Positions 2,103 to 53,103 of a stretch of 64,000 nt of DNA are shown here, in pieces. Source of the DNA: Parcubacteria group bacterium Gr01-1014_13 (lineage in GTDB: Bacteria; Patescibacteriota; Patescibacteriia; Magasanikbacterales; GWA2-37-8). Below the pieces are notes generated by a model. The model did not search any database and was not told the DNA's origin. It was given only the letters and a program-made list of their open reading frames with translations. Numbering within the stretch: position 1 is the first letter of the stretch; every line of letters begins with the position of its first letter. The translations under genes and the position numbers were made by a program. The DNA lies in the NCBI GenBank assembly GCA_007376295.1, contig VMGB01000001.1, positions 5,030 through 69,029 on the forward strand, in the 5' to 3' direction.

Positions 2103-4124
2103 ATGCTTCAATGGATGCAACGAAAATTTTTCTTAATTCTTAAAGCCGCTACAATAACGACTGTTGTTTTGTTAGCGGTTTTTTGTTTGCCTGATCTAGT
2201 TCGGGCGCAGAGTATTGTCGATCCAAGCAGTACTTTGCAAACTGGAGTCGCCGTTATTTCCCAGCCGTTAGGTTTGCCTGCTACCGATATCAGGCTGATT
2301 GTGGCCAATATAATACGAATAGCTTTGGGGCTTTTGGGAATTATCGCCGTGGCTTTATTGATTTATGCTGGCTATCTTTGGATGACAGCTGGAGGTAATG
2401 AGGAACAGATTGCTGATGCCAAGAAATTTTTAATTAACACTGCCATTGGTCTGGCTATTATTCTCAGCGCTTATGCAATCGTTAGTTTTGTTATTAGTAA
2501 ATTAACTGATGCCACTGGAGATGGGGGACAGTTCGGCGGCGGAAGTTTAGAAGCGCCGATTTCGGAAAATTTTCAAGGCAGTGGCGCTTTGGGTAAGATT
2601 ATAAAAGATCATTATCCAGCGCGTGATCAAGTAGCAGTACCGCGCAACACTAAAATTGTTGTAACTTTCCGTAAACCAATTAAAGCCGATAGTTTTATTG
2701 ACGACACTACTGGTGATGGAATTTTTGGAAATTGCAAAACTACTGTAGAAAATTGGTGGAATGACTGCGATCATGTAAAAAATATTAGTGATAATTTAAT
2801 TAATATAAAACGCGCAGATAATAACGAGAAAATTTTTGGCGCAGTCGCCTTAACATCACTTAGCACTGAAAATGGTGTGGCTGGTATTTATACAATTTTA
2901 ATTAAACCAATTACTGATGCTGGTAGTGCTAACGGGGGATATTTAGGCAGCGCCACCGAACCACTGGCGTATATTGTTCGTTTGGGTTCAGGCATGCTTT
3001 TGGATGACCCAGCTAACAGCAATCCTTCAGTATTTCAGGCTAGTATTTTAGGAAATAATTATTATGAATGGAAATTCACTAATAGTACCGCTTTAGATAC
3101 TGCCCCGCCTTCTGTGGAAAGTATTTTTCCAGACGCTGATACTACCGAAGATAAAAATAGTGTTTTGCAGATTCATTTTAGCGAACCTTTAGACCCAATT
3201 GGTATTCAAGGTAAATTTAATGCTGCCGCCGGACATTTTGTGCTTGATGGTGGAAATATTTTCTTAAAATCCGACAACAGTACTTTGCCTCAAGGTAATT
3301 TTAGTCTGACCAATGGTTACAGAACTTTGGAATTTACACCTTCTCAGGAATGCGGCAAAAATGCCTGTGGCAACAAAATTTATTGTTTGTCAGTCTGTGA
3401 TAAACCGGGCGCCAACTGCAGTCAGGATAATTATGAAGTCCTGCTTCGCGCGGCCAGAACAATTAATGCCAGCTCATTTGAATCTCTGCCGCTTTCAGGC
3501 ATTGCCGATTTGGCTGGCAATGCTTTGGATGGAAATAAAAATAATACTCCTAACTCTGCCCCGATCAGTTTGCCAGTATTTCCTAATCAAAAACAACCGG
3601 ATAATTTTTTCTGGGGCTTTAAAATTTCCGACAAAATCGATTCTTCCACTCCTTTTATACAGACAATATTGCCAGGCAAGGACGGTGAAAATATAACTCG
3701 TAATCAGGAATTAAGCATGGTCTGGAGCAAACGAATGCGCGCTGATTCGATGTATAATATAGGTATAGAAGAAAAACCAGCTCATCAAGTTCCCATTTGG
3801 AAAGTACCTTTCACATTATTTAATCCTAATAATACGAGCTATACCCGGATAAATCATGGTCCGTTTTTGGATGCAATCCGCCAGTATTATTTCCCAGTAG
3901 TAAGTTCTAGTGTTGAAGATTTACATTTCAATTGTTTCTATCCTGGCAAAGGTCCGAGTCGTCCAGTTGGCGCAGGTACGGTAGTCTCTCCGGATTGTGA
4001 TGATGTTAATCCGCAGAATTGTTGCCAAGTGATAAGCGCGCTGAACAAATCTCTTTGTTGCAACGGCGCGGTAGGTACAGTTGCTTCAGCCTGTTTAGAT
4101 TATCTGCGGCAAAATAGTCTTTAA
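2103..4124 (+). CDS. Large secreted/membrane-anchored protein with an N-terminal TrbC/VirB2-like pilin module fused to Ig-like (SbsA/Big_5-like) domains and a Cys-rich C-terminus
   Basis: Signal peptide followed by the ATDIRLIVANIIRIALGLLGIIAVALLIYAGYLWMTAGGNEEQIADAKKFLINTAIGLAIILSAYAIVSFVISKL two-helix pilin-like module, then a Gly-rich linker. The C-terminus is CC-rich (NCCQVISALNKSLCCNG). Confidence 0.8.
   Translation: MLQWMQRKFFLILKAATITTVVLLAVFCLPDLVRAQSIVDPSSTLQTGVAVISQPLGLPATDIRLIVANIIRIALGLLGIIAVALLIYAGYLWMTAGGNEEQIADAKKFLINTAIGLAIILSAYAIVSFVISKLTDATGDGGQFGGGSLEAPISENFQGSGALGKIIKDHYPARDQVAVPRNTKIVVTFRKPIKADSFIDDTTGDGIFGNCKTTVENWWNDCDHVKNISDNLINIKRADNNEKIFGAVALTSLSTENGVAGIYTILIKPITDAGSANGGYLGSATEPLAYIVRLGSGMLLDDPANSNPSVFQASILGNNYYEWKFTNSTALDTAPPSVESIFPDADTTEDKNSVLQIHFSEPLDPIGIQGKFNAAAGHFVLDGGNIFLKSDNSTLPQGNFSLTNGYRTLEFTPSQECGKNACGNKIYCLSVCDKPGANCSQDNYEVLLRAARTINASSFESLPLSGIADLAGNALDGNKNNTPNSAPISLPVFPNQKQPDNFFWGFKISDKIDSSTPFIQTILPGKDGENITRNQELSMVWSKRMRADSMYNIGIEEKPAHQVPIWKVPFTLFNPNNTSYTRINHGPFLDAIRQYYFPVVSSSVEDLHFNCFYPGKGPSRPVGAGTVVSPDCDDVNPQNCCQVISALNKSLCCNGAVGTVASACLDYLRQNSL
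2260..2530 (+). repeat. Copy 1 of the duplicated pilin-module coding segment (about 270 bp)
   Basis: About 75% nt and about 80% aa identity to 4265..4535, from GLPATDIRL to SKLTDAT. Confidence 0.8.
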
Positions 4125-4135
4125 CCCCAACCAAC

Positions 4136-7100
4136 ATGACCCAAAGGAGAGGAAAAATTTTAATCACACTTTTATTCGCGGTTTTGGCTACTGCTGCTTG
4201 TTTGTGGTTTGCGCCCGCAGTTCATGCTCAAACAACTAACGCTCCAGATTTGGGTTTGGCGCCAGTAGGCAGTTCTATCGGTCTGCCATCTACTGATATC
4301 CGTTTGGTAGTAGCCAATATTATTCGTGTTGCTTTGGGACTGCTGGGTATAGTCGCTTTAGTTTTAATAATTTATGCTGGCTTTGTTTGGATGACTGCCG
4401 GTGGTGAAGAAGAAAAAATTTCTCAAGCCAAGAAAATTATGGTCAATGCCGCTATTGGCTTGGCAATAATTTTATCATCATACGCTATTGCCAGTTTTGT
4501 AATTAGTAAATTAACTGACGCTACCACCGACAATGGCGGAATTGGCGGTCCTGGCGGCGGGGGAGACAACCCATATTTCCCAGGCGGAATTTTTTATGTT
4601 GATAGTTTGCCGTCCGGAGGACAGTTGTGTATTAGAAATGTTCACTTAGCGCTCACTTTTAATTTGAAAGCAGATATTTCCACCTTAAACGATAATGTGG
4701 TGGTACAAAAAGCCGACGGCACAGTTCAGCCTGGACAATGGGAATCGTTAAGTAATACAACAGTTGCTTTTGTGCCCAACGGAGATTGCGGAAGTGGCAC
4801 GCCGGATTGTTATGCTGCCAACACAGCTTACACTTTGCATTTCAAAAATGGCAGTGCAGTAAAATCTGCTAATGGTCAATTAGGTTTAAACTGTGCAATT
4901 AAAGCCGGTTGTGGTGATGTTCAGTTTACAACTGGTGATGGTGTGGATCGCAATCCGCCGCAAGTGAAAATAGAACCGATTGCCAGTGATCTGTTGCGGG
5001 TTGGAAATGTTGTGCCAGTAGAAGTTAGTTATACCGATGATAATGGCGTACAAAAAATAGATTTAACTGCTGATAACTTCTTTGTTAGTAGTCAGTCTGT
5101 TCCAGGTTGTCAAAAGTCAGGTTCGGTCACTCTCAATTGGCCTACAGTTGGAATTTCAGGCGGGGTACATGCTTTGGGAGCAACTGGCTTTGATTGGTCT
5201 GCGCTTAGCGATAGTACCAGTACAAATGTAAATCTGTTACCTCAACATTGTTTTGATAATACTTTGCAGGCGGATTTAGGAGAAGTCAAAGTTGGTCCTC
5301 CAGCTTGTGGTGGCGAATGTGGTGCTTGCGCTGGTTCTCCATGTACTACTAATACGCAGTGTGCCAGTGGTTTTTGTGATCAGGTGGCTGGTGTATGTGT
5401 GGACAAGATGCGTATCAATGGTGTCTCTCCATTATCCGGCGGTCCGGGAACTTTTGTTTCTATTAGTGGTGATTATTTTGGCAATACACCTGGTAAAGTT
5501 TTTATTGGTGCAACTCCAGCTCCGCTGGCAGCTTGTGCTATTGGCGCCTGGAAACCTTGGCAAATAATAATTCAGGTACCGCCCGGCGCAGTTAGCGGAC
5601 CAATATCAGTGGAAACAGCTCCGGACTCAGGAGGAAAAAATTTCACCGACGCTACCAATGATAGCTTTGGGCCAAGAATTAGTGATTTTACAGTAAATAA
5701 TTTAGTGCGTCCTGGTTTGTGCGGAATAAATCCAGTGGGTGATTTGCCTGGCGCAGAAGTGTCTCTATTAGGTCAGCGTTTTAGTAATGCTCCAGGGCAA
5801 GTATTTTTTGGCCAACAAAGTGTTTTGATAAGTTTGAGCAACTGGACAGACACTTTGATTAAAGCCAGAGTTCCTTTGCTTGATGTCGGCCCAGTAGCAG
5901 TAAAAGTTTCCAAAAATAATTTAGATAGCAATAGTGTTAAATTTTTTGTTGAGCAGGGATTAAGCGGTACAGCCCCATTTATTTCCAGCATCACTCCAGA
6001 TCGTGGCGGGAAAGGGGAATATATAACTATTACGGGAAATAATTTTGGTGATCAAACAGGAAGAATTTGGTTTAAAGAAAATATTAATGGCCAGCCTGGT
6101 GATGCGATAGATGGTAGTTTTACTTTCCCAGCCGGATGCCAAAACACTTGGACCGATAAACAGATTATTGTAAAGTTTCCAGCCAATAACGGCAGTGTGG
6201 GTAAATCTTATTTTGTACAGGTTCGTCCAGCTGATTCTAGTTTGGGCACCAGTCCGCTAGGTCCAATTTTTAATCTAGAAGCTGGTCTGCCTTCGCCGGG
6301 TATTTGTAATATCAATCCGGTTTCTAGCCCCGTACCTTTTGCCAGCGCAGCTCCGGATATGAAAATTATCGGAGAAAATTTTGGTGCAGCGCCATTAGTT
6401 TATTTCTGGGGACCAGCGGCGTCTTCTACTTCCATCACTGGTAGAATTCTCGGCAGTTCAAGCACTGTGACAAATATGCTTGTGGGCCAAACTATCTCTA
6501 CCCGTCCATTAGCCGGCACAATCAGCGGTCCGGTAGTAGTACAGAGAAAACCGGATAATAAATTAAGTAATCCGCAAAATTTTTCCGTAGTAGATTGTGT
6601 TAAAAATAATAATACTTGCACAGCTGTAAATACACATTGTTGTATGGCAGGAACAGAATCGGGCATGTGTAAGCCGGATACAGAGTTATGCGAAGGCGAA
6701 ACTTTGTCGACCGGATTCATTTGGCGTTTCAGCACAAAGGATATTCCAAAAATTCCCCAAGTAGTAGAAAGATGTGATAATAATACTGATTTGGGTTTGA
6801 ATATTCCTTCACCTTCACCTAGTACTTTGTGGGACACTTCCACCAGCGGTGTTCACCACAGTGTTTGTCGTACCGCTTCAGTCATGGTGGAGTTTAGTTT
6901 GCCAACGATGAATAATATTTCTCGTACTAATTTAGTAGTCAATGAATGTAATCCTAGCACTGTAAACGAAATTAACCGCACTTGTACTGCGGTGGGTCAA
7001 GTAAATCTTAAGGGTACAGGTGATTTTGTGCCCCAGCTGAGCACGGAAAGGACTGATTATTTACAATTAAATCCAGACGCTAGTTACAACAACGGAAAAT

Positions 7101-10100
7101 GGAAAGACAATACCTGGTATCAAGTTGTGCTCCGAAGCGGTATTACTGCTGGTGTCGGTACAAGCAGCGCTCCTTTGGCCAAGGATAAACCGTGCGGCGG
7201 AGACTCATCTTACTGTTTTGTTTTTAGGTCTGATTCCCAAGATTGTAAAATGAAACAAGTGGTAATTACTCCATACAGTTATTTTACTACTGTTTTAGAA
7301 GCGCCAATGAAACACAGGACTAATCCGGCAGATGATGGTGAAGACGTTGTTTATTCTGGACACGGATTAAGCACCCAGCATTGTATAATTATGGACACCA
7401 GCATGTTTACCTGGACTTGGGGCAGTAAAAACGCCTATTATGCCGATATTTTTTCTGCAAATAATTCTTCGGCCAAAGTTTCGGCCTTGGCCAACACTGT
7501 AGGTGTAGGTTTAACTAATCCGGAAAATGCTGTGAATGTAAACGCCACCGCCACATTGGCTTCGGCTAGTTTTGGTGGACGCAGTCCGCTCACCATAGAT
7601 TTAAGTAATCCCGAAGTGGTAGATTTCTGGCCAACTTGTTTGCAGTCTTGTACCAACGCTGAAGTGGGTGTGCGTTTTAGCACCACCATGTCGAATAAAA
7701 ATTTGCCGAGCGGTCCGATAAAATTATTAAAATGTGCTGATGAAAATTGTTTCAAGACTACTCCGGTTTTAGCAGATACAGATGTGTTTTTAGACAGCGC
7801 TACCGGATACAGAATTTTAAAACTTGCCAATTCCGGTCTTGGTTCATTAGAGCTGGAGCCAGATACTATTTATAAAGTTGTAATTTCTTCATCCACCAGC
7901 AATGTAAATTCGCCGGAGTTATTATGGTCTGCGGCCAGATTAGGTGATCCGACTACATTTTCGAAGCCATACAAAAAAGAGTTTACCTGGCGTTTTAAAA
8001 CTAAAAAAGAAAAATGTAAAATTCACCGCGTGGAGGTAGCACCGAAAAATTTCTTTGCTGAATTTGTAATTGATAGAGAACTATACAGCGCCCAACCATT
8101 TTCGTCTCCGGACACTTGTAGTGCAGCCGGACAAAAATTAAATCCTTGGATGGTAGGTTGGAACTGGACATCTTCCGCGCCTGCAGTGGCAAAGGTAACT
8201 ACTTTTAGCACCAAAGGAAGCAATCCTTACTGCACTTTGGGTTGTGTGCGTAAAGGTAGTAGTATTCCGGTCGGAGTGACAGGAATTCCAGTTTGCGGCA
8301 ATGGACAACTAGAAGCCGGGGAGGATTGTGATCCGCCGGGCAAAGGAGCTGGTTGTGGTTTAGATTGTCGAAGATTGGGAAATATTAGTACATCTACTTG
8401 TGGAAATGGAATTGTTGAGCCAAATCGCGGCGAAACATGTGACACCGGATCAGCTACTACTTCCATTGGTTGTGGCAGCAACTGTCTACGTCTTGGTTCT
8501 TCAGCGGCTACGGGCGCAACAGTTACGGGTGCCTCTATTTGCGGCAATGGTTCTATTGGTAGTGGTGAAGATTGTGATTTAGGAATTACAGCATCTTCAA
8601 CAGTGGCTATTTCAGCTATGCGTTGTTCAGACAACTGTTTACATTTAGGTACAAGATTATCTAATAACTGGTGTTTTACTAATAGTGTTGGTTTTGGCGG
8701 ATTTGCCCAAACAGAATTTCTATCTGCATGCCGGCTGGCTTTAAGCCGTTGCGGTGATGGGGTAAATAATCCAGATGAAGACACTGGATGTGATTTAGGT
8801 AATGGTAAGAAAGCTGCAAAGTGTAATGATTTTTGTTTGATTAATACTAGCAGCACTTCTCCTCTTGAATGCGTTGCCAACACCGAAGGCTGTGATCAAA
8901 ATGGTCAACATATAGGTTCTTCCTTGCTTTATAGCACACCATCGTTGTGTGGGAATGGACTGGCAGAAATTGGTGAGGATGCTTTTTGTGAAACTAATAT
9001 TATTACGATCCATACCGGATTTAACCCTTGGACTTTAGCTACTGGTATAGGCTTAGGTGTGGCTATTGGAGTTCCAGCAACTCAGCAAACGGATATAAAT
9101 GGTAGTACCAGCGAGCAAACTGCAGGTGGCGGCCCAGTAGGCAACAAAGGTAAATTTATTATTCCATGCGGATACAAAACTGATGCTGAATGTGAAGTGC
9201 GTCTGGGTAAGGGTTGGGGCGTGGCTTCGGACGGCTGTTGTTATGTGCGTCCGAAATTATCAAGTGTTTATCCGGGAAGTACTACCACAGTCCAAGCAAA
9301 TGTTTGCCCAAATACAGCTATCGAAGCTACTTTTGATGATGAGATAGATGTTTCGAGTTTAAAAAATAATATAGTATTGGCCCGCGGTGCCGGCGCCACA
9401 GCTACTTGTAGCGGCACCGAAGATGTTTCTAATTTAGTATTAAATAATCAACCAGTTGATGGAAGTAATTTGCCTTGGTACAAAAAGATTTTTGTAGTCG
9501 TAGTTAATTTCTTCAGAAATTTAGCGGGTCAAGATGTATCTGCGACCCATACCACTATCCAATCAACCAAGTGGTGCGCCGGAGAAGATCTTGGTCAAGG
9601 CGATGTGGTTGTAACCACCGGGACAGAAAGTAAAATTATTTTCAAATTAGATCAGCCGCTAGCTTTTGATACGGATTATTTTATTGCGTTAAAAGAAGGT
9701 TTACGTAGCAAGCGGGGGATAAGCATTGGGAAAAATAATACTACAAATAAACCATTAAGTTGGAAGTTTATTACCGGATCAAAAATTTGTGAGATTGATA
9801 GTGTGGCTGTAGATCCGTCACAAGTTTATTTAAACAAAGCGGGCGTCACCACCACTCTATTTGCCGATGCTTACAATGCTAGTGCGGCAAAGATTCAGGC
9901 TATACCGAGATTTTATGCCTGGCAATATTTATGGCAACCAGTCGGAAATCTTCTTGTAAATCTACAAGAGACAACCTCTTCCCGAAATATAATTTCGGCG
10001 CAAAATCGTAACGGTGAAATTGACTTGCGCGCTTCAGCGGTAATTACTGACAATATTTATTCTAACCAATTTGGCGCTGTGGCCACCGGCAAGTCCCACG

Positions 10101-10909
10101 CCATCGTCTTTTTGTGCGAAAATCCTTGGCCGCCAAAAGATTTATTCTTGGGCAATGCCGGTCCGTTTATTATTTTCCCTTATGAAGATAAGTTAGGAAA
10201 TAACGACGGCTATAGTTTGGCTGCCAGCACATTCAACAACACTCCTTTGCCACCTTCTCCTAGCGGCGGTTACTTTAATTTCAGATCTTATTACTGCGCG
10301 GATAGTGGTAGTTTTGGTACAGACGATGATTTGCCGTATTTGCGTCCGGCAGTTCAGGTGTCGAGCGCAATAGTTACTGATAGTCCTACGTCTAGTTTAA
10401 AACGATTTATTTTGACTAATACCAGAAACAACGATGCTATCGGAATGGCAGTCTTTTCTAATCCAAAACACTTAACTGTAGCCCAATGGTTTGCAACTGA
10501 CCGGGCTTTAGGCGGACAAGGATTCACTGGTAATATGCAGACTACAAAAATAGATGGCTATGATGCGCTTACGGATGGGAATAATATCTATGTAGATGCG
10601 CTTAATTATTCCGACACTGTTCCTCACAATCTTTACTCTAATATTTACTTATTTAGTATTAATGCTGATGCTCAGCCAGAGACAAAAAAAGTATTTGAAC
10701 AGATGATTGAAAATTTGCGCTTTAATGTCAATCTAACTAATTATGGTTACTGCGGCCCAACAATGGCCAACCCAGGGGCTTCCACCACTTGCCAAACTGA
10801 TTTGGATTGTTCTGGCACAGAAATTTGTTCGGTACAGACCGACAAATTAAAGAGAAATTACCAGAGACTCCGAGATCTAAATGAGATACAAAATTTATTG
10901 GGTATTTAA
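4136..10909 (+). CDS. Giant (2257 aa) secreted surface protein. It carries a TrbC/VirB2-like pilin module, Ig-like domains, about five IPT/TIG domains, Cys-rich CGNG..GE.CD (DUF4215/Myxococcus-type) repeats and further Ig-like domains.
   Basis: Signal peptide MTQRRGKILITLLFAVLATAACLWFAPAVHA, then a pilin module nearly identical to the upstream gene. TIG-like repeats are present (MRINGVSPLSGGPGTFVSISGDYFGN..., PFISSITPDRGGKGEYITITGNNFG...). Repeats CGNGQLEAGEDCDPPG / CGNGIVEPNRGETCD / CGNGSIGSGEDCD / CGDGVNNPDEDTGCD / CGNGLAEIGEDAFCE lie at nt about 8290-8990. Confidence 0.85.
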   Translation: MTQRRGKILITLLFAVLATAACLWFAPAVHAQTTNAPDLGLAPVGSSIGLPSTDIRLVVANIIRVALGLLGIVALVLIIYAGFVWMTAGGEEEKISQAKKIMVNAAIGLAIILSSYAIASFVISKLTDATTDNGGIGGPGGGGDNPYFPGGIFYVDSLPSGGQLCIRNVHLALTFNLKADISTLNDNVVVQKADGTVQPGQWESLSNTTVAFVPNGDCGSGTPDCYAANTAYTLHFKNGSAVKSANGQLGLNCAIKAGCGDVQFTTGDGVDRNPPQVKIEPIASDLLRVGNVVPVEVSYTDDNGVQKIDLTADNFFVSSQSVPGCQKSGSVTLNWPTVGISGGVHALGATGFDWSALSDSTSTNVNLLPQHCFDNTLQADLGEVKVGPPACGGECGACAGSPCTTNTQCASGFCDQVAGVCVDKMRINGVSPLSGGPGTFVSISGDYFGNTPGKVFIGATPAPLAACAIGAWKPWQIIIQVPPGAVSGPISVETAPDSGGKNFTDATNDSFGPRISDFTVNNLVRPGLCGINPVGDLPGAEVSLLGQRFSNAPGQVFFGQQSVLISLSNWTDTLIKARVPLLDVGPVAVKVSKNNLDSNSVKFFVEQGLSGTAPFISSITPDRGGKGEYITITGNNFGDQTGRIWFKENINGQPGDAIDGSFTFPAGCQNTWTDKQIIVKFPANNGSVGKSYFVQVRPADSSLGTSPLGPIFNLEAGLPSPGICNINPVSSPVPFASAAPDMKIIGENFGAAPLVYFWGPAASSTSITGRILGSSSTVTNMLVGQTISTRPLAGTISGPVVVQRKPDNKLSNPQNFSVVDCVKNNNTCTAVNTHCCMAGTESGMCKPDTELCEGETLSTGFIWRFSTKDIPKIPQVVERCDNNTDLGLNIPSPSPSTLWDTSTSGVHHSVCRTASVMVEFSLPTMNNISRTNLVVNECNPSTVNEINRTCTAVGQVNLKGTGDFVPQLSTERTDYLQLNPDASYNNGKWKDNTWYQVVLRSGITAGVGTSSAPLAKDKPCGGDSSYCFVFRSDSQDCKMKQVVITPYSYFTTVLEAPMKHRTNPADDGEDVVYSGHGLSTQHCIIMDTSMFTWTWGSKNAYYADIFSANNSSAKVSALANTVGVGLTNPENAVNVNATATLASASFGGRSPLTIDLSNPEVVDFWPTCLQSCTNAEVGVRFSTTMSNKNLPSGPIKLLKCADENCFKTTPVLADTDVFLDSATGYRILKLANSGLGSLELEPDTIYKVVISSSTSNVNSPELLWSAARLGDPTTFSKPYKKEFTWRFKTKKEKCKIHRVEVAPKNFFAEFVIDRELYSAQPFSSPDTCSAAGQKLNPWMVGWNWTSSAPAVAKVTTFSTKGSNPYCTLGCVRKGSSIPVGVTGIPVCGNGQLEAGEDCDPPGKGAGCGLDCRRLGNISTSTCGNGIVEPNRGETCDTGSATTSIGCGSNCLRLGSSAATGATVTGASICGNGSIGSGEDCDLGITASSTVAISAMRCSDNCLHLGTRLSNNWCFTNSVGFGGFAQTEFLSACRLALSRCGDGVNNPDEDTGCDLGNGKKAAKCNDFCLINTSSTSPLECVANTEGCDQNGQHIGSSLLYSTPSLCGNGLAEIGEDAFCETNIITIHTGFNPWTLATGIGLGVAIGVPATQQTDINGSTSEQTAGGGPVGNKGKFIIPCGYKTDAECEVRLGKGWGVASDGCCYVRPKLSSVYPGSTTTVQANVCPNTAIEATFDDEIDVSSLKNNIVLARGAGATATCSGTEDVSNLVLNNQPVDGSNLPWYKKIFVVVVNFFRNLAGQDVSATHTTIQSTKWCAGEDLGQGDVVVTTGTESKIIFKLDQPLAFDTDYFIALKEGLRSKRGISIGKNNTTNKPLSWKFITGSKICEIDSVAVDPSQVYLNKAGVTTTLFADAYNASAAKIQAIPRFYAWQYLWQPVGNLLVNLQETTSSRNIISAQNRNGEIDLRASAVITDNIYSNQFGAVATGKSHAIVFLCENPWPPKDLFLGNAGPFIIFPYEDKLGNNDGYSLAASTFNNTPLPPSPSGGYFNFRSYYCADSGSFGTDDDLPYLRPAVQVSSAIVTDSPTSSLKRFILTNTRNNDAIGMAVFSNPKHLTVAQWFATDRALGGQGFTGNMQTTKIDGYDALTDGNNIYVDALNYSDTVPHNLYSNIYLFSINADAQPETKKVFEQMIENLRFNVNLTNYGYCGPTMANPGASTTCQTDLDCSGTEICSVQTDKLKRNYQRLRDLNEIQNLLGI
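4265..4535 (+). repeat. Copy 2 of the duplicated pilin-module coding segment
   Basis: Aligns with 2260..2530 (STDIRLVVANIIRVALGLLGIVALVLIIYAGFVWMTAGGEEEKISQAKKIMVNAAIGLAIILSSYAIASFVISKLTDAT). Confidence 0.8.
8281..8998 (+). repeat. Tandem protein-level Cys-rich repeats (about five units of 35-60 aa, CGNG/CGDG...GE.CD...C..C) inside the giant gene
   Basis: Read directly from the translation. The copies have diverged at the nucleotide level. Confidence 0.7.
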
Positions 10910-14494: not shown

Positions 14495-14890
14495 ATGATG
14501 GGAACAAATAAAAAAATTATAATCTTATTAGTTGTTTTGGCGCTGGGGGGAGCGGGGGTTTTGGCTTACAAAAAATTTATTTCATCCAAACAAGTGGATA
14601 AAAATTTAGCACCATCATCTAGTTCTTCTCTAGATGAAGCAAGACAGCAGGAATTTGACGATGCCATAAAGAAAACTTCTGCCTCGGATCAAGATATGGA
14701 TGGAATTCCAGATAATGAAGAAGCAAAATACAAAACCAGTGTTACATCTTCTGATACAGACGAAGACGGCTTACCAGATCATCAAGAAATTTTTAATTTT
14801 AAAACTGATCCGCTAAAAGCAGACACCGATGATGATGGTTCTGCAGATGGGTACGAAGTGCGTCGCGGCTCAGATCCTAAAAAGATTTAA
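14495..14890 (+). CDS. Small membrane-anchored protein with thrombospondin-type-3-like DxDxDG calcium-binding repeats
   Basis: N-terminal TM segment IIILLVVLALGGAGVLAY, then DQDMDGIPDNEE, DTDEDGLPDHQE and TDPLKADTDDDGSADGYE. Confidence 0.6.
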   Translation: MMGTNKKIIILLVVLALGGAGVLAYKKFISSKQVDKNLAPSSSSSLDEARQQEFDDAIKKTSASDQDMDGIPDNEEAKYKTSVTSSDTDEDGLPDHQEIFNFKTDPLKADTDDDGSADGYEVRRGSDPKKI

Positions 14891-14915
14891 TTTTTATCAT
14901 TTATTACTCGATTAT

Positions 14916-15689
14916 ATGTTTGATGAGCAAAACCAAAATTCAGGCGCGCCCAAAAATTTACCAGCCGAACCAGTAGATATGTTTGCTGGAGTAGAAAAAG
15001 ATGAAGGGAAGTTAGGGCAAATGCCGCCATCTAGCCCGGATGCTTTGTCTGCTGGCCGGTTGAGTCCTAAGGGGGCTCCTGCGATAAAAAAAGAAGAAGC
15101 GCCTATCTCACCTCATTTATCAAATGTCGGTCATGAACTAAAAATGAGTACGCCTATTTTGGGGAAAATATTATTATTTTTAGCGGTAGTTTTGTTATTA
15201 GGCGGTTTGGCCTACGGCGGTTGGTGGTTTATGTATGGTAGTAAAAATAAATCCGCTAAATTACCCGCAACGACCACCGAGCAGACTGTTCAAAATCAAA
15301 CTTCTGGCGTAACTAATACCACCAATATTCCTGCGCAGATAAATAATGATCAGATTTTATTTGGACAAGCAGTTGATAGCGATAAAGATGGGTTAGATGA
15401 TGTACGTGAAAAAGAGATTGGCACTGATCCGCAAAAATTAGATTCTGATATTGATGGTTTAAATGATGGTGATGAAGTTATTATATACAAGACTAATCCT
15501 TTATTTGCAGATACAGACACAGACGGTCTAAGCGATGGCGATGAGATTCTTATTTGGCGCTCTAACCCTTTGAATATGGATACCGATGGTGATAGTTATA
15601 AAGATGGTGAAGAAGTGAGAAATGGCTATAGTCCTGTTGGGCCTGGAAAACTATTTAGCGCACCGTCTTCCACAGCTACAGGCACTTAA
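14916..15689 (+). CDS. Membrane-anchored protein with TSP3-like DxDxDG repeats. The start is taken at the internal ATG of listed ORF 14829..15689.
   Basis: ATG at 14916 lies downstream of the previous stop at 14890. TM segment ILGKILLFLAVVLLLGGLAYGGWWF. Repeats DSDKDGLDDVRE, DSDIDGLNDGDE, TNPLFADTDTDGLSDGDE and SNPLNMDTDGDSYKDGEE. Confidence 0.65.
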   Translation: MFDEQNQNSGAPKNLPAEPVDMFAGVEKDEGKLGQMPPSSPDALSAGRLSPKGAPAIKKEEAPISPHLSNVGHELKMSTPILGKILLFLAVVLLLGGLAYGGWWFMYGSKNKSAKLPATTTEQTVQNQTSGVTNTTNIPAQINNDQILFGQAVDSDKDGLDDVREKEIGTDPQKLDSDIDGLNDGDEVIIYKTNPLFADTDTDGLSDGDEILIWRSNPLNMDTDGDSYKDGEEVRNGYSPVGPGKLFSAPSSTATGT

Positions 15690-15696
15690 ACTATAT

Positions 15697-16857
15697 ATGT
15701 TTGGAAAAAAAGAGGAAATAAGTACAAAAAATGATCCGATGAGTAAGGTTCCGAGTGATGGGCAAACTATAAGTGTGCAGACAATTCCTGCAGATTTTTA
15801 TGGCGGTGTAAATCCAGTCGTGAAATTTAAAAAAGTAGAAAAAGAAGTGTTGCTGGAATCAAAATCAAAGCTGACTCCGTCAGAAAAGAAAGTTCTTGAT
15901 AAAAGCACGGCTGCAGGCAAGGATTCGCTTTTGCATCCGGTCAATATTTTGACCAATAAAAAATATGCGATAATTTTTGGATCTTCTCTTTTCGTGCTTA
16001 TTGTGGCCGGGGTGAGCGTCTATTATTATCTACAACTTCGACAGCCAAAGATTTCTCTGCCGCCACAACCGGAAATTAGCATTCCTACTACCAGCGAGCT
16101 GACACCAGTAGCGGTAGAAAGTCCGACCGAAGAGCCCGCTGTTACTAGTACTGCGCCTCAATCTTTAGCAGAAGCGCCGATAGAATTTCCGTCCAGTCTT
16201 TTAGGAGATAGTCCGGATTTGGATAAAGACAGCCTGACAGACACTGCTGAAGAGTTGTTTGGTACCGACCCAAGCAAGCCAGATACTGATGAAGATAGTT
16301 ATAACGATGGCCATGAAGTTTTTTATCTGTATAATCCGGCTGGCAAAGAGCCCTTGAAATTAATCGACTCTGGTTTTGTAAAGGATTATAATAATCCAGT
16401 GTTTGGTTATAAAGTTTTTTATCCGTCAACTTGGGCTGTGGGCAATGTGGATGAAGGTTATCGAGATGTTTTGTTTAGTACGATTACCGGTGAGAACATA
16501 GAACTTCGGGTGTTTGATCGATTGTCAAACCAGACATTTGCAGACTGGTTTGCGCAGTGGGCGCCAACCGAGCAATATCAAAATTTGAAAGATTTTCAAA
16601 CTAAATTCGGACAGTCAGGTAAAAGCAGGGCAGATAGCTTGGTATATTATTTTATGGACGATAACCATGTATATGTGGTAGTTTACCATACCACAGATTC
16701 CAATGTGGTTAATTATCGGTCCGTAATGGCGATGATGGCAAGGAGTTTTAGAACTCCTGGGTTCACTGCTTCGGAAGCAGTCCCACCACCAAATGCGGAA
16801 ACAAATACTTTCCCTACTGAAATGCCTACCGCCATAAACGCTCCAGAATCCCAATAA
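15697..16857 (+). CDS. Membrane-anchored protein with TSP3-like repeats and a C-terminal domain resembling the PsbP/DUF1795 fold (tentative). The start is taken at the internal ATG of listed ORF 15622..16857.
   Basis: ATG at 15697 lies immediately after the upstream stop at 15687-15689. TM segment AIIFGSSLFVLIVAGVSVYYYL. Repeats DSPDLDKDSLTDTAEELFGTDPSKPDTDEDSYNDGHE. C-terminal block FGYKVFYPSTWAV... Confidence 0.6.
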   Translation: MFGKKEEISTKNDPMSKVPSDGQTISVQTIPADFYGGVNPVVKFKKVEKEVLLESKSKLTPSEKKVLDKSTAAGKDSLLHPVNILTNKKYAIIFGSSLFVLIVAGVSVYYYLQLRQPKISLPPQPEISIPTTSELTPVAVESPTEEPAVTSTAPQSLAEAPIEFPSSLLGDSPDLDKDSLTDTAEELFGTDPSKPDTDEDSYNDGHEVFYLYNPAGKEPLKLIDSGFVKDYNNPVFGYKVFYPSTWAVGNVDEGYRDVLFSTITGENIELRVFDRLSNQTFADWFAQWAPTEQYQNLKDFQTKFGQSGKSRADSLVYYFMDDNHVYVVVYHTTDSNVVNYRSVMAMMARSFRTPGFTASEAVPPPNAETNTFPTEMPTAINAPESQ

Positions 16858-22828: not shown

Positions 22829-22856
22829 TTGACAAAAGGCGTATTTGTGGTACAAT
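22829..22856 (+). promoter_or_regulatory. Sigma70-like promoter TTGACA-16-TACAAT upstream of the island gene
   Basis: ttgaca at 22829-22834 and tacaat at 22851-22856, followed by an AAGGAGG SD before the ATG at 22997. Confidence 0.5.
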
Positions 22857-22996
22857 ACGCCGCTCTTTTATTTCTCAGCTTTCTTTTGGCTCTGTTTACA
22901 GGTTCAAAAGAAGGCTGGGAAAACCAGCTAGAAGACAAGCCTTATGCTCTGCATGGTGTAGAGTGAGAGGTGAGTCATAAATCAAGGAGGTGCCAA

Positions 22997-23584
22997 ATGG
23001 CACGCACGAAGCAACAGAAGAGCGAGTTCGTTAGTGGTCTCGGCACAGGGTTCGAGTTCGTCAAGGCGATCTCAGATGAGGTCCGAAAATTGGGCGGTAG
23101 TGATGATGATCTTCGTAAGGTCATCACACAGACCGCTTTGCGTCGCAAGATTGCCGAGTCTATCATGGTGGGTCGAGATGGAAGCAAGTTTCCCTCTCTC
23201 GTCCATGCCGCAGAGCTCATCCCCGAGGGATGGACGGTCGTGGAGGATGTCGTTCTGTCGTCATTCGACGTGAGCGGTTTGAAGCCCCGTTCGTTCCTCA
23301 AAGAGCGTGAGACGTCAATCAGCAGCGAACAGATGCGTAAGCGCGCCGCGGAGTTCCACTGCAACCTCGGGCTCTCCGATGCTAAGCGCATGCTTGCCGA
23401 GCAGGATAAGATCCCTGTCGAGTTTCGGGATTTTTATATCCCATTTCCCGGCACGGTTTTGCGCGATCCGGGCGGCGACCTCAGCGTCCCTTACCTCTTC
23501 TTCTACGGCGGTCGTTGGCGCATGGACTTCGTCTGGCTCGGCAACGACTGGGACGTCAGCGATCGGTTCGCCTGTAGCGAGTAG
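22997..23584 (+). CDS. Hypothetical protein (195 aa), a member of a two-copy paralogous family in this window (paralog at 52405..52986)
   Basis: ATG at 22997 with a strong SD aaggaggtgccaaATG. Shares with the paralog: RKRAAEFHCNLGLSDAKRMLAE...IPVEFRDFY...VPYLFFYGGRWRMDFVWLGNDW versus RQRAIKLKANLGLADAQYILGH...IPNEFRKHY...VAFLYWHHSRWFLGFRPAGDSW. Confidence 0.6.
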   Translation: MARTKQQKSEFVSGLGTGFEFVKAISDEVRKLGGSDDDLRKVITQTALRRKIAESIMVGRDGSKFPSLVHAAELIPEGWTVVEDVVLSSFDVSGLKPRSFLKERETSISSEQMRKRAAEFHCNLGLSDAKRMLAEQDKIPVEFRDFYIPFPGTVLRDPGGDLSVPYLFFYGGRWRMDFVWLGNDWDVSDRFACSE

Positions 23585-23645
23585 GAAACTTGGTGACTCG
23601 GACACTTGGTACTAAACTGTTGTCTGTTCGGTCCTCGGTTTCTCG

Positions 23646-23705
23646 GACCCTCGGTCAGCGTTCACTGTAAAATGTGAATGTTTGGTCGAGGGTCTTTTTC
23701 TTTTC
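23646..23705 (+). terminator. Structured rho-independent terminator after the island gene
   Basis: Stem gaccctcg/cgagggtc around a loop containing the inner hairpin ttcac..gtgaa, then TTTTTCTTTT. Confidence 0.6.
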
Positions 23706-51069: not shown

Positions 51070-52324
51070 GAATCTATTAATCCTGTTATTTTTGTTTCTG
51101 TTGCCCTGGCAAACCAGATATATTTGGCAATATGGCCAAATAAATTCTGGCTATTGGGAATATGGAACTTTTAGTATTTACGCCACGGAAATTCTGTTAT
51201 GGGGTATTTTGATTCTGTTTTTTATCCAGCATTTTGTAAAAAAAGAATTTTGGATAAGTTTAAAACAAAAGCCGCCGCGGGGTTTTTTAATGGTACTATT
51301 ATTATCTTTAGCGCTTTCGGTAGCTCTAAGCAGTAATTTTTGGATTTCATATAATTATATATTTCATATTTTAGAGGCGATGGCCCTGATGACAGTGCTG
51401 GTCCGGCAAAATGAAAAAATAAAACTTCAAATTGCTCTTTGGGCTGGAGCGGTAGTGCAGGGTGCGCTAGCTATTTGGCAATTCTTGACCCAACATGTTT
51501 GGGCCAGTAAATGGCTTGGCATGGCTAGCCAGGAAGCTCAAAATTTAGGTCCGAGCGTGATTGAGTTTGCCGACCAAAGATGGTTGCGCGCCTATGGCAG
51601 TTTTGGTTCGCCAAATTCATTGGGTATTTATTTAGCGATTTTGTTTGTGTTGGGCCTAGTTTTGTATCTAAAAGCAGATTCGGCCAAGAAAAAAATTATT
51701 ATTAGCGCCGGACAGCTTTTAATTTTATCTGGATTGCTGGTTTCTTTTTCTCGCGGCGCTTGGCTGGCGGCCGTGGCAGGGGCATTATGTCTGCTAGTCT
51801 TAATATTTTTTAAGCAGAGGCAGTGGCTACAAAGTTTTGGCAAACAAATTGGTTTTGCTTTGGCCGTGATTGTTTTTTGGCTGGTAATTTTTTATCCGGT
51901 TTTTAATGCCAGATTTAATTTTGGTAATCGTTTGGAAGTAAAGTCAATTTCCGAAAGAAAGGGGCAGTATGCCGAGGCAATATCTTTTATCAAATCAAAT
52001 CCGATTTTGGGAGTTGGGCCCGGCGCTTACACTGATGCTTTATATAAAAAATATCCAACTTTGCAGTCTTGGGAGTATCAGCTGATTCATAACATTTATT
52101 TGTTAGCCTTGGTAGAAATTGGTTCGGCGGGTGCTTTATTGTTATTTTTTTTACTTAAACAGCTATTTTCGTTGATTTTAAAAAACAATCTTCTTTATAC
52201 CTCGGTGGTTATAGCTCTGGCCTTGGCCGGGCTGTTCGACCATTGGCTTTGGAGTATGTATACAGGCCTCATATTTTTCTGGGTAATTATAGGGGCCCTA
52301 GTCTTGACAAAACAGGCTGATTAA
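51053..52324 (+). CDS. O-antigen ligase/polymerase (Wzy_C) family membrane protein
   Basis: About 11 TM segments and VSFSRGAWLAAVAGALCLLVL, the Wzy_C signature. The start is taken at the ATG at 51053. Confidence 0.7.
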   Translation: MLRKIENLLILLFLFLLPWQTRYIWQYGQINSGYWEYGTFSIYATEILLWGILILFFIQHFVKKEFWISLKQKPPRGFLMVLLLSLALSVALSSNFWISYNYIFHILEAMALMTVLVRQNEKIKLQIALWAGAVVQGALAIWQFLTQHVWASKWLGMASQEAQNLGPSVIEFADQRWLRAYGSFGSPNSLGIYLAILFVLGLVLYLKADSAKKKIIISAGQLLILSGLLVSFSRGAWLAAVAGALCLLVLIFFKQRQWLQSFGKQIGFALAVIVFWLVIFYPVFNARFNFGNRLEVKSISERKGQYAEAISFIKSNPILGVGPGAYTDALYKKYPTLQSWEYQLIHNIYLLALVEIGSAGALLLFFLLKQLFSLILKNNLLYTSVVIALALAGLFDHWLWSMYTGLIFFWVIIGALVLTKQAD

Positions 52325-52404
52325 TGATATAAAATTTGAGGTCAAAACGTGTCCATTTTGGACCTTTGCTACGTTGGCATTAGGCCCAATGTATTAAAGG
52401 GCCG

Positions 52405-52986
52405 ATGGATGCTAGGGAGCAAAGACAAGTGGATCCGACATTGGGCCAGATAAGCGAGCTTTTCGAACAAATTAAGGCAAAACGGATTAATCAGGAGAAT
52501 CTCCAGGCTTTTCTGCGTAATCCAGATTTGTATCTGAAAAGCGATGTCCCTGTTCCAATCAATGCTGCAAATTTGGTTCCCGGTGATTTGGAAGTTATTC
52601 AGGAAGTCGAACCATCAAAGTTTGAAATTTGGCGTCTCGAGGCAGTTCCTTTTTTTGGACAAGACAAAGATACTAATGCAGAAGAAGAAATTACCACTGA
52701 GGTCTTACGCCAGCGCGCAATTAAACTCAAAGCCAATCTGGGCTTGGCCGACGCGCAGTACATTCTGGGCCATCAAGCTGGTATACCCAACGAGTTTAGG
52801 AAGCACTACTTTGTATTTCTAGGTGCGCACCTGAGGGTGCCTGAAAATGGTTTGGTAGTGGCATTTCTCTATTGGCACCACAGTCGTTGGTTTCTCGGGT
52901 TTCGCCCAGCTGGCGATAGCTGGACAAGAAACGGCAGGCTCCTTCGTATTAAACCTGTTAAATCTACCAATAAAGTCCGACCCTAG
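52405..52986 (+). CDS. Hypothetical protein (193 aa), paralog of 22997..23584
   Basis: Shared motifs NLGL(S/A)DA, IP(V/N)EFR and the aromatic-rich C-terminal block. Confidence 0.55.
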   Translation: MDAREQRQVDPTLGQISELFEQIKAKRINQENLQAFLRNPDLYLKSDVPVPINAANLVPGDLEVIQEVEPSKFEIWRLEAVPFFGQDKDTNAEEEITTEVLRQRAIKLKANLGLADAQYILGHQAGIPNEFRKHYFVFLGAHLRVPENGLVVAFLYWHHSRWFLGFRPAGDSWTRNGRLLRIKPVKSTNKVRP

Positions 52987-53030
52987 TTCGGCGTTCACTT
53001 AGGTGTATAGCCGTTCCAGGGTCTTTTTAT
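52979..53030 (+). terminator. Rho-independent terminator homologous to the one after the paralog
   Basis: Stem gaccct/agggtc with a loop containing gcgttcact (compare cagcgttcact in the 23646..23705 terminator), followed by TTTTT. Confidence 0.55.
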
Positions 53031-53103
53031 TTACCCTTGACAATTTGGCTGTGTTTATAGTAAAATGGCCTCACATTCAGTTATTTTTTAATCTTTAATA
53101 AAT

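Follow-up and report, generated by a model that had tools for sequence, protein, structure and literature searches.

Two genes of Parcubacteria group bacterium Gr01-1014_13, both on the forward strand of a 64,000-nucleotide stretch of contig VMGB01000001.1 (positions 5,030 to 69,029; hereafter the window), very probably belong to a large family of variable (target) proteins of about 190 amino acids that serve diversity-generating retroelements (DGRs) and are restricted to the candidate phyla radiation (CPR). The first gene, at window positions 22997-23584, is referred to here as copy 1 and the second, at 52405-52986, as copy 2. Two "hypothetical proteins" of a Parcubacteria genome thereby become recognisable parts of a hypermutation system, and the pair can be read as a before-and-after series, in which copy 1 keeps the DGR footprint and copy 2 has lost it and shows a host-like composition.

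That the two proteins are homologous had been proposed from shared motifs in an initial annotation of this DNA, and BLASTP of 52405-52983 against 22970-23581 bears this out, with 46/134 identities (34%), 53% positives, 81 bits and E=5e-24. The quoted motifs are present in copies 2 and 1, respectively, as NLGLADA/NLGLSDA and IPNEFR/IPVEFR, together with the aromatic C-terminal block. The similarity is significant and is not confined to low-complexity segments, the aligned part being the C-terminal 134 residues outside such sequence. Both proteins match the family profile (E=5e-90 for copy 1 and E=1.2e-54 for copy 2, the latter identical to protein P0001), and a six-frame profile search of the window recovered copies 1 and 2 as its only members. 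The further proposal of a two-member family did not survive: a profile of 30 members, searched against 1.84 billion cluster representatives, recovered 3,451 clusters at 50% identity with E<=1e-3 and 1,420 with E<=1e-10, most of them 140-200 aa long. Single-sequence word-index searches returned 37 homologues for copy 1, the closest at 66% identity, and for copy 2 one distant homologue only, P0002 of locus L005. All named matches come from CPR lineages, namely Nomurabacteria, Komeilibacteria, Kerfeldbacteria, Liptonbacteria, Magasanikbacteria and "Patescibacteria group", and none of them carries a Pfam domain; the 3,451 clusters are without exception unannotated. Neither copy nor any of the 30 aligned members matched Pfam, PHROGs, NCBIfam or PADLOC, a PDB sequence-profile search gave noise only, and domain scans of longer multi-domain relatives were uninformative. 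Among homologues, differences rank by codon position as 3 > 1 > 2, and the family genes are therefore real coding sequences. Their products combine a swappable N-terminal module of about 55 aa, of which there are at least three types plus signal-peptide variants, with a conserved C-terminal domain of about 130 aa. For comparative work, related loci (L numbers) were gathered from genome and metagenome scans with two short peptide patterns, which returned few loci; L008/L009 represent the same strain, as do L002-L004, and with 0-2 differences they are unusable for population variation.

The family is a DGR target family, as is apparent from the residues at its C terminus. When 196 members are aligned, 12 of the final 38 profile columns are hypervariable (entropy >=3 bits), and their residues are almost exclusively D, G, R, Y, N, S, H, C, F, V and L. 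The residues outside the NNC-encoded set (K, E, Q, M and W) account for 4% in these 12 columns; further upstream, in 24 columns of equal variability, their share is 25% (Mann-Whitney p=9e-6). The codons at the hypervariable positions across the family genes are NNC or GNT. Such a spectrum, limited to what adenine mutagenesis can produce, is the footprint of DGR mutagenesis of AAC, GAY and TAC codons. Several related loci retain the template itself. Using an nhmmer profile of the variable region (VR) built from the last 135 nt of eight family genes, second, A-rich copies corresponding to the template repeat (TR) were found 360-490 nt 3' of the gene in L008/L009, L012 and L018. All VR/TR mismatches fall at TR adenines (23 in L009, 13 in L012 and 21 in L018) and none at other bases; in a separate count of two VR/TR pairs, 22/28 and 11/28 A sites differed, against 0/90 non-A sites. 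Homology between VR and TR stops at the stop codon (VR ...CAGC GAG TAG, TR ...CAGC TAG TCT). In the TRs of L009 and L012, 28 adenines are spread over 19 codons in each case, enough for about 1e16 different peptides. At both loci the TR is followed by an Avd-like open reading frame (ORF) on the minus strand and by a reverse transcriptase (RT) with the motifs LGNLTSQLFAN and YIRYADDFVFL. RT and Avd genes adjoin the homologue in L001, L009, L012 and L018; in L001, a Magasanikbacteria metagenome-assembled genome, these match RVT_1 and bAvd (PF22296) and the order of the elements is as in L009/L012. The family also has a GC-rich, IMH-like VR end followed by an inverted repeat that has no counterpart at the TR, features whose roles are predicted.

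To judge from these loci, a complete element comprises the target gene, an A-rich TR that begins some 360-490 nt further on, an oppositely oriented Avd gene and the RT. The TR would be transcribed and then reverse-transcribed with random misincorporation at adenines, and the resulting cDNA would replace the last ~120 nt of the target ORF, that is, the VR. About 19 codons could be rewritten in this way (AAC to NNC, GAY to GNY and TAC to TNC). They are predicted to encode beta-strands in the C-terminal part of a compact alpha/beta domain, the binding surface of which would be altered by the rewriting. The GC-rich ORF end and the inverted repeats after the stop codon may be the cis elements marking the recipient copy, with the distal repeat presumably doubling as a transcription terminator. 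Other DGRs have been reconstituted in E. coli (PMC12875486).

Several observations weigh against this scheme or against its application to the window genes. Neither the window nor the 7 kb preceding it (together, the searched region) yielded a TR, an RT or an Avd gene in searches that included an RT motif scan, tblastn with the L012 RT and Avd, and nhmmer with the VR profile. DGR action on copies 1 and 2 themselves is therefore no more than a possibility. For copy 1 the status of orphan is more likely than that of active remote target. Even at L001, where Avd and RT are present, blastn found no TR. When copy 2 was compared with foreign TRs, 19-20/28 A sites and 46-47/90 non-A sites differed (p about 0.1). 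Foldseek gave no significant fold match and nothing useful for the copy 2 model. The hairpins of phage DGRs have a 7-10 bp stem and a GRNA loop (PMC3240598), from which the 3' hairpins of the family differ. Lastly, the DGR model is without an explanation for the high GC content at third codon positions (GC3) of the whole target ORF beside AT-rich avd and RT genes.

Decay of the flanking elements can be followed at other loci. A blastn search for a TR within L001 and the window found nothing, and L001 appears from its sequence to have lost its TR; its RT ORF is moreover interrupted by a REP-like repeat, which together with the missing TR looks like a decaying DGR. In L005, a 45-aa fragment (4960-5094) that is 47% identical to a DGR RT lies between the family gene (P0002) and argS, and is best regarded as a remnant of a lost DGR.

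Copy 1 is the member of the pair that retains the footprint. Its VR is the sole match of the VR profile in the window and, against the foreign TRs of L009 and L012, mismatches occupy 15-16/28 A sites as compared with 12-14/90 non-A sites (p about 3e-5). The ORF ends in CGGTTCGCCTGTAGCGAGTAG and is followed by two hairpins; TR copies diverge straight after ...CAGC, and their downstream sequence is unlike that of the VR. For copy 1 two states come into question, that of a remote target served by a DGR elsewhere in the genome, which may be active, and that of a target orphaned only recently. Remote targets are known, for example, in Treponema denticola, where a VR gene with intact 3' cis elements lies far from any RT or TR (Wu et al. 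2018, PMC5758913), as does copy 1; unlike in those cases, no matching TR was seen for copy 1 in the searched region, and remote DGR targets have been reported only outside the CPR lineage (PMC5758913).

Upstream, copy 1 has a CTTGACAAAA... promoter that is shared by homologous loci, and an alternative start codon, GTG, is found at 22970. Between a strong TTGACAAAA-type promoter and the family ORF, leaders of the same kind, about 140 nt long, occur in L010, L011 and L013-L016. A leader profile built without window sequence had a sole match in the window, at 22903-22960 (E=1e-5). The leader hairpin has sequence-conserved arms (TCCCAGCYTTCTTTT ... AAAGAAGGCYGGGAA), with A-T/G-C covariation in L014/L015, and a variable apical part in which REP-like insertions are tolerated; an alternative pairing of GGCTGGG with a downstream CCAGCC is possible. 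In copy 1 a second small hairpin precedes the Shine-Dalgarno sequence. The leader belongs to no Rfam family, its only matches being spurious miRNA hairpins, and it may act as a 5' stabiliser or regulatory RNA of DGR target genes.

The 3' regions of the two genes show a further shared element. Downstream of both lies GACCCT...TC.GCGTTCACT...AGGGTC TTTTT.TTT.CC, and GCGTTCACT occurs exactly twice in the window, once per gene. A covariance model of the distal hairpin (R1), built from six loci of other metagenomes with zero window sequence, gave two significant matches in the 64 kb, both after the family genes; the distal hairpin is therefore a family-wide element. A shared terminator with a GACCCT stem and GCGTTCACT loop, and the common inheritance of gene and 3' hairpin, had both been put forward in the initial annotation, and both were corroborated here. 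At both genes the element consists of a GC-rich stem-loop and a U-run, as in rho-independent terminators; a simple terminator scan missed them because their loops and stems exceed the limits of the scan. An Rfam scan of the window at gathering and E-value thresholds returned only spurious miRNA hairpins. Every homologue carries two hairpins after its stop codon, and the consensus fold is conserved across loci; in copy 1 the 119-nt region 23582-23700 has a predicted folding energy of -49.9 kcal/mol (z=-6.05, RNAfold). In homologues the proximal hairpin is made up of CTYGG repeats, four to eight in number and with a period of 8 nt, and an inner tetraloop of the UUCG type is frequent. The CTYGG repeats are able to pair with one another in RNA through G-U wobbles, giving the proximal hairpin. 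The CTYGG array pattern matched twice in the window, both times 3' of copy 1, against 0.03 matches expected, and at other loci such arrays always stand directly after the family stop codon. The arrays were located at 23589-23654 in the window, 6573-6593 in L001, 1369-1389 in L009, 3332-3352 in L010 and 962-1027 in L013. They might be protein-binding arrays; coding potential in this region was rejected, since neither a period of 8 nt nor changes at first positions are compatible with codons.

Efficient homing of DGRs requires inverted repeats located 3' of the VR (PMC3240598), and it is by analogy that we infer roles of the family hairpins in homing, the distal one being certainly terminator-like. 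In the hairpin/cruciform structures of Guo et al. 2011 (PMC3240598), GC-rich inverted repeats stand directly after the end of TR/VR homology, follow the VR and not the TR, and are conserved among related targets, and the same holds for the family. Unlike the phage hairpins, which lie 4-34 bp from the VR, the family has two hairpins, of which the proximal one is long, is built of CTYGG repeats and has an inner UUCG-like tetraloop at several loci, and the distal one, with 21 pairs, serves as a terminator as well. It is quite conceivable, if somewhat short of an even chance, that the 3' hairpin is a mere rho-independent terminator inherited with the gene and takes no part in retrohoming. In both copies and their homologues the stem is long and GC-rich and leads into TTTTT.TTT, which fits this explanation, as does the retention of the hairpin by copy 2, which is apparently no longer diversified, and its distance of at least 60 nt from the VR end, compared with 4-34 bp in phage DGRs (PMC3240598). 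On the other hand, the primary sequence is conserved across genomes well beyond the needs of a terminator, the proximal hairpin intervenes between the distal hairpin and the VR in intact members, and the TR copies are not followed by the family hairpins, as expected for a recipient-specific mark.

Copy 2 is an eroded member of the same family. NNC-set residues are retained at 11/12 of its hypervariable columns (EGVYHFGRDTNG), and its third codon positions have drifted (e.g. GTG, GAA, GTA, TAT, AGT and TTT). At the family stop-codon position copy 2 has CCT, leading to a 10-residue extension (PVKSTNKVRP) that runs into the hairpin, and relative to the family profile it carries substitutions at strongly conserved positions (D83E, T152A, V153H, G159N, W179P and L180A). 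Its distal hairpin has several broken pairs, and the 5' arm overlaps the stop codon. The window pattern scan found neither a proximal hairpin nor a CTYGG array at copy 2, and the leader profile found no family leader there; the promoter-like stretch upstream overlaps the end of an O-antigen-ligase-like ORF. In our reading, copy 2 is a target orphaned long ago, which homing has ceased to refresh, and not a fresh duplicate. Its former status as a target is suggested at the sequence level by its family membership, by the 11/12 NNC-set residues and by L005, where the P0002 gene has NNC codons and the adjacent RT remnant. Alternatively, copy 2 could derive from a subfamily that was never a DGR target and be a conventional paralogue sharing the fold, given that no A-site signature was detected, that conserved positions are substituted and that the N-terminal module is different. 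This is unlikely: the L005 protein shares the N-terminal module of copy 2 and has a strongly NNC-coded C terminus (GC3 0.86) with an RT fragment immediately 3' of its gene; L013, P0011 and P0022, which carry the same module, have canonical VRs and 3' hairpins; and copy 2 itself keeps the NNC set at nearly all hypervariable columns.

The composition of the two genes parallels these states. Of the GC enrichment claimed for both, that of copy 1 is strong, with 0.565-0.59 in 400-nt windows compared with about 0.40 in the flanks and 0.57 over the whole gene, whereas that of copy 2 is only weak (0.455-0.477 compared with 0.35-0.39). GC3 is 0.70 in copy 1, rising to 0.87 in the VR, compared with 0.32-0.39 in neighbouring genes; in copy 2 it is 0.43, near host values. 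Target ORFs at related loci have GC of 0.56-0.66 and GC3 of 0.75-0.95, uniform from start to stop, a bias seen in the family genes of L001, L002, L005, L007, L009-L015 and L021; the genes next to them have GC3 of 0.32-0.48. The element's own avd and RT genes have an overall GC of 0.35-0.44, and the L001 RT a GC3 of 0.48. Within the VR the bias could be due to adenine avoidance, but this leaves the remaining 450 nt unaccounted for, and in target ORFs the depletion of T equals that of A. The bias erodes in an orphan, as copy 2 shows. A more far-reaching reading, prompted by this bias together with the 5' leader and the CTYGG hairpin, is rather doubtful: CPR DGRs would affect, or select for, much more than the 120-nt VR, for instance by GC-biased repair in the course of repeated homing events, through a composition or R-loop requirement for cDNA integration, or via control of the target at the RNA level, or else one CPR DGR would serve several dispersed targets in trans.

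In the initial annotation the pair was ascribed to duplication of a gene-plus-terminator unit within this genome, giving a private two-member paralogous family. The homology and the common hairpin are real, and just two copies are present in the window. The notion is nonetheless extremely unlikely. With the variable C-terminal part excluded, core identity between copies 1 and 2 is 38%, while the closest core relatives in other genomes and metagenomes reach 66-71% for copy 1 and about 52% for copy 2; among 195 members, copy 1 ranks 67th for copy 2 and copy 2 ranks 156th for copy 1. Because of this low core identity and the closer relatives of each copy elsewhere, a local duplication is discounted. 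The N-terminal modules and 5' regions differ between the copies, the same hairpin is found in unrelated metagenomes, and the size of the family is incompatible with a private pair. Nor did cassette-like mobility hold up as the link between gene and hairpin, the hairpin having its place 3' of the VR in a DGR target family.

A related explanation would be an autonomous mobile cassette (integron-like, miniature-transposon (MITE)-like or other) that inserts promoter, gene and hairpin, with the DGR association being secondary. Homologues do form GC-rich islands between unrelated housekeeping genes with their own promoter and terminator, the L021/L022 breakpoint coincides precisely with the -35 box and has an IS1595 transposase as its neighbour, and REP-like repeats flank some copies. 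We consider this very unlikely, since no recombinase, attC-type R''/R' core sites or target-site duplications were found, the hairpin is followed by a T-run in the manner of a terminator, the window lacks REP elements, and viral contigs gave no matches. Lone genes are accounted for by the decay of flanking DGR parts (the lost TR of L001 and the RT remnant of L005), and no mobility is needed. Integron cassettes resemble the family units in having a single ORF with an imperfect inverted repeat, several copies per genome and a foreign-looking composition. Unlike such cassettes, the units have their own sigma-70-like promoters and a T-run after the hairpin, with no GTTRRRY core or R''/R' sites and no integrase; the window genes stand isolated between housekeeping genes and form no cassette array. 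An integron attC reading was thus rejected on sequence features. A phage origin likewise has no support, as IMG/VR viral contigs searched with the family patterns gave zero matches, and the idea of a conserved gene neighbourhood was dropped, the context differing at every locus.

It is of note that L021 (5715) and L022 (3683) share an identical family gene together with IS1595 transposase, NYN and bPH_2 genes and have different upstream neighbours; their identity begins at the promoter -35 box, which therefore marks a rearrangement breakpoint at the promoter. REP-like hairpin repeats (GTCATYCCCGCnnAGGCGGGRATCC) flank DGR cassettes or family genes at some CPR loci, as in L001 (5740-5767, 7627-7720 and 8236-8263) and L011 (around 3640-3670 and 4480-4560). 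These GTCATTCCCGC... elements were considered as cassette borders and rejected, being present at some loci and absent from the window.

In structural terms, the copy 2 model (AlphaFold2, AF2) has a predicted local distance difference test score (pLDDT) of 84.7 overall and >90 in the C-terminal domain, and the copy 1 C-terminal domain was modelled with a pLDDT of 96.4 and a predicted template modelling score (pTM) of 0.89. In the predicted topology, a pair of strands at the N terminus is followed by four short helices and, at the C terminus, by a four-stranded sheet whose last three strands are covered by the VR. The top full-length Foldseek match of the copy 1 domain model was 8oks, the C-terminal domain (CTD) of Bd2740, at a non-significant best E=0.19, followed by rhodocetin, BDCA2 and MCL, C-type lectins at TM 0.40-0.48. 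The Bd2740 CTD has been described as a variant C-type lectin, its nearest oligomeric analogue being the DGR protein Mtd (PMC10769870). The predicted C-terminal domain probably adopts a divergent C-type-lectin-like fold. In the C-type-lectin-fold DGR proteins Mtd, TvpA, AvpA and TaqVP the C-terminal ~35-45 residues are diversified (PMC6328139, PMC5006420), as in the family, and in both the diversified part occupies the beta-strands and loops with which a compact alpha/beta domain ends; the family consists of a single ~130-aa domain with a swappable N-terminal module, and its structural matches to C-type lectins are weak.

Closer parallels exist within the CPR. The DGR targets of clade 2 of Roux et al. 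2021 (PMC8144416) are likewise cellular, CPR-restricted and small, typically without recognisable domains, and share with the family the lack of a transmembrane segment or known domain and a VR at the extreme C terminus. As in other CPR DGRs, the TR, Avd and RT are adjacent to the targets of related loci, and substitutions are adenine-specific. Wu et al. 2018 described a "CPR set" of DGRs with unassigned VR classes UVR1-6 (PMC5758913), and the family can be likened to this set as a whole. The label "uncharacterised" given to the family earlier is correct insofar as no biochemical characterisation exists, but the kind of protein is known, namely the domain-less DGR variable proteins of CPR bacteria (PMC8144416, PMC5758913). 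CPR DGRs have been reported with mostly single adjacent targets, whereas the window genes are without DGR parts within 64 kb. For the domain-less CPR DGR targets, whose function is open (PMC8144416), a large alignable family of 3,451 clusters is now available. Three features of the family are possibly undescribed so far, namely its GC3 bias over the whole ORF, its 5' leader and its CTYGG hairpin. A further account of CPR/Patescibacteria DGR targets is reportedly that of Paul et al. 2017 in Nat Microbiol. Together, the NNC spectrum, the hairpin covariance model, the 5' leader and the GC3 bias could be used to annotate orphan targets that lack a TR.

The coordinates of the features discussed above are collected in Table 1.

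Table 1. Features of the two window genes, in window coordinates, and leader positions at related loci
Feature	Position	Strand	Description
Copy 1	22997..23584	+	195 aa from ATG, G01um101413_22; GC-rich DGR variable-protein gene; "KSEFVSGLG...GGxDDDLRKV" type N-terminal module
Copy 1 promoter	22829..22856	+	TTGACA-16-TACAAT, extended -10 TG; 11/12 consensus matches
Copy 1 5' leader	22857..22996	+	conserved, structured; long hairpin about 22871-22923, arms CTCAGCTTTCTTTTG / CAAAAGAAGGCTGGG
Copy 1 VR	23461..23578	+	last ~39 codons; variable codons NNC or GNT; in register with L009 and L012 VR/TR pairs
Copy 1 proximal hairpin	23584..23643	+	CTYGG repeats, 8-nt period; candidate DGR target-recognition inverted repeat
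Copy 1 distal hairpin and T-run (terminator)	23646..23704	+	covariance model R1, 61 bits, E=1.2e-16
Copy 2	52405..52986	+	193 aa, G01um101413_52; eroded DGR variable-protein paralogue; "ENLQAFLRNP" type N-terminal module
Copy 2 promoter-like stretch	52304..52333	+	TTGACA-18-TATAAA read from sequence; fails consensus scan rule
Copy 2 VR-equivalent	52833..52950	+	register from protein alignment; no detectable DGR signature
Copy 2 distal hairpin and T-run (terminator)	52979..53033	+	covariance model R1, 29.7 bits, E=7e-7
Leader, L010	2600-2757, 3375-3540
Leader, L011	3695-3838
Leader, L013	216-438
Leader, L014	382-543
Leader, L015	3787-3919, ~5107-5200
Leader, L016	1232-1415

Family genes also occur in tandem. 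A second gene with its own leader copy is present at L010 3328-3831, L015 ~5113 onward and L007 4722-4993; CPR DGR targets can therefore form arrays. A second large CPR group of about 200 aa (P0038 and P0176-P0289) carries the "KSEFVSGLG...GGxDDDLR" N-terminal module and keeps a C-terminal "...W....RFAAVRK" ending with a different middle domain, so that the same N-terminal module is fused onto different scaffolds, which are probably also diversified.

Elsewhere in the window, a giant 2,257-aa ORF (4136-10909) and a 673-aa ORF (2103-4124) both have T4SS_pilin and Big_5 matches and have in common a 245-nt repeat with 72% identity (2271-2515 / 4280-4524). These two ORFs are followed by a 1,165-aa Laminin_G_3 protein, and all three products are probably located at the surface of the CPR cell or associated with its pili. 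At 14804-16343, four to five copies of a 56-62-nt repeat lie in ORFs 14829-15689 and 15622-16857 and encode D-x-D-x-D-G-type (thrombospondin type 3-like, calcium-binding) motifs.

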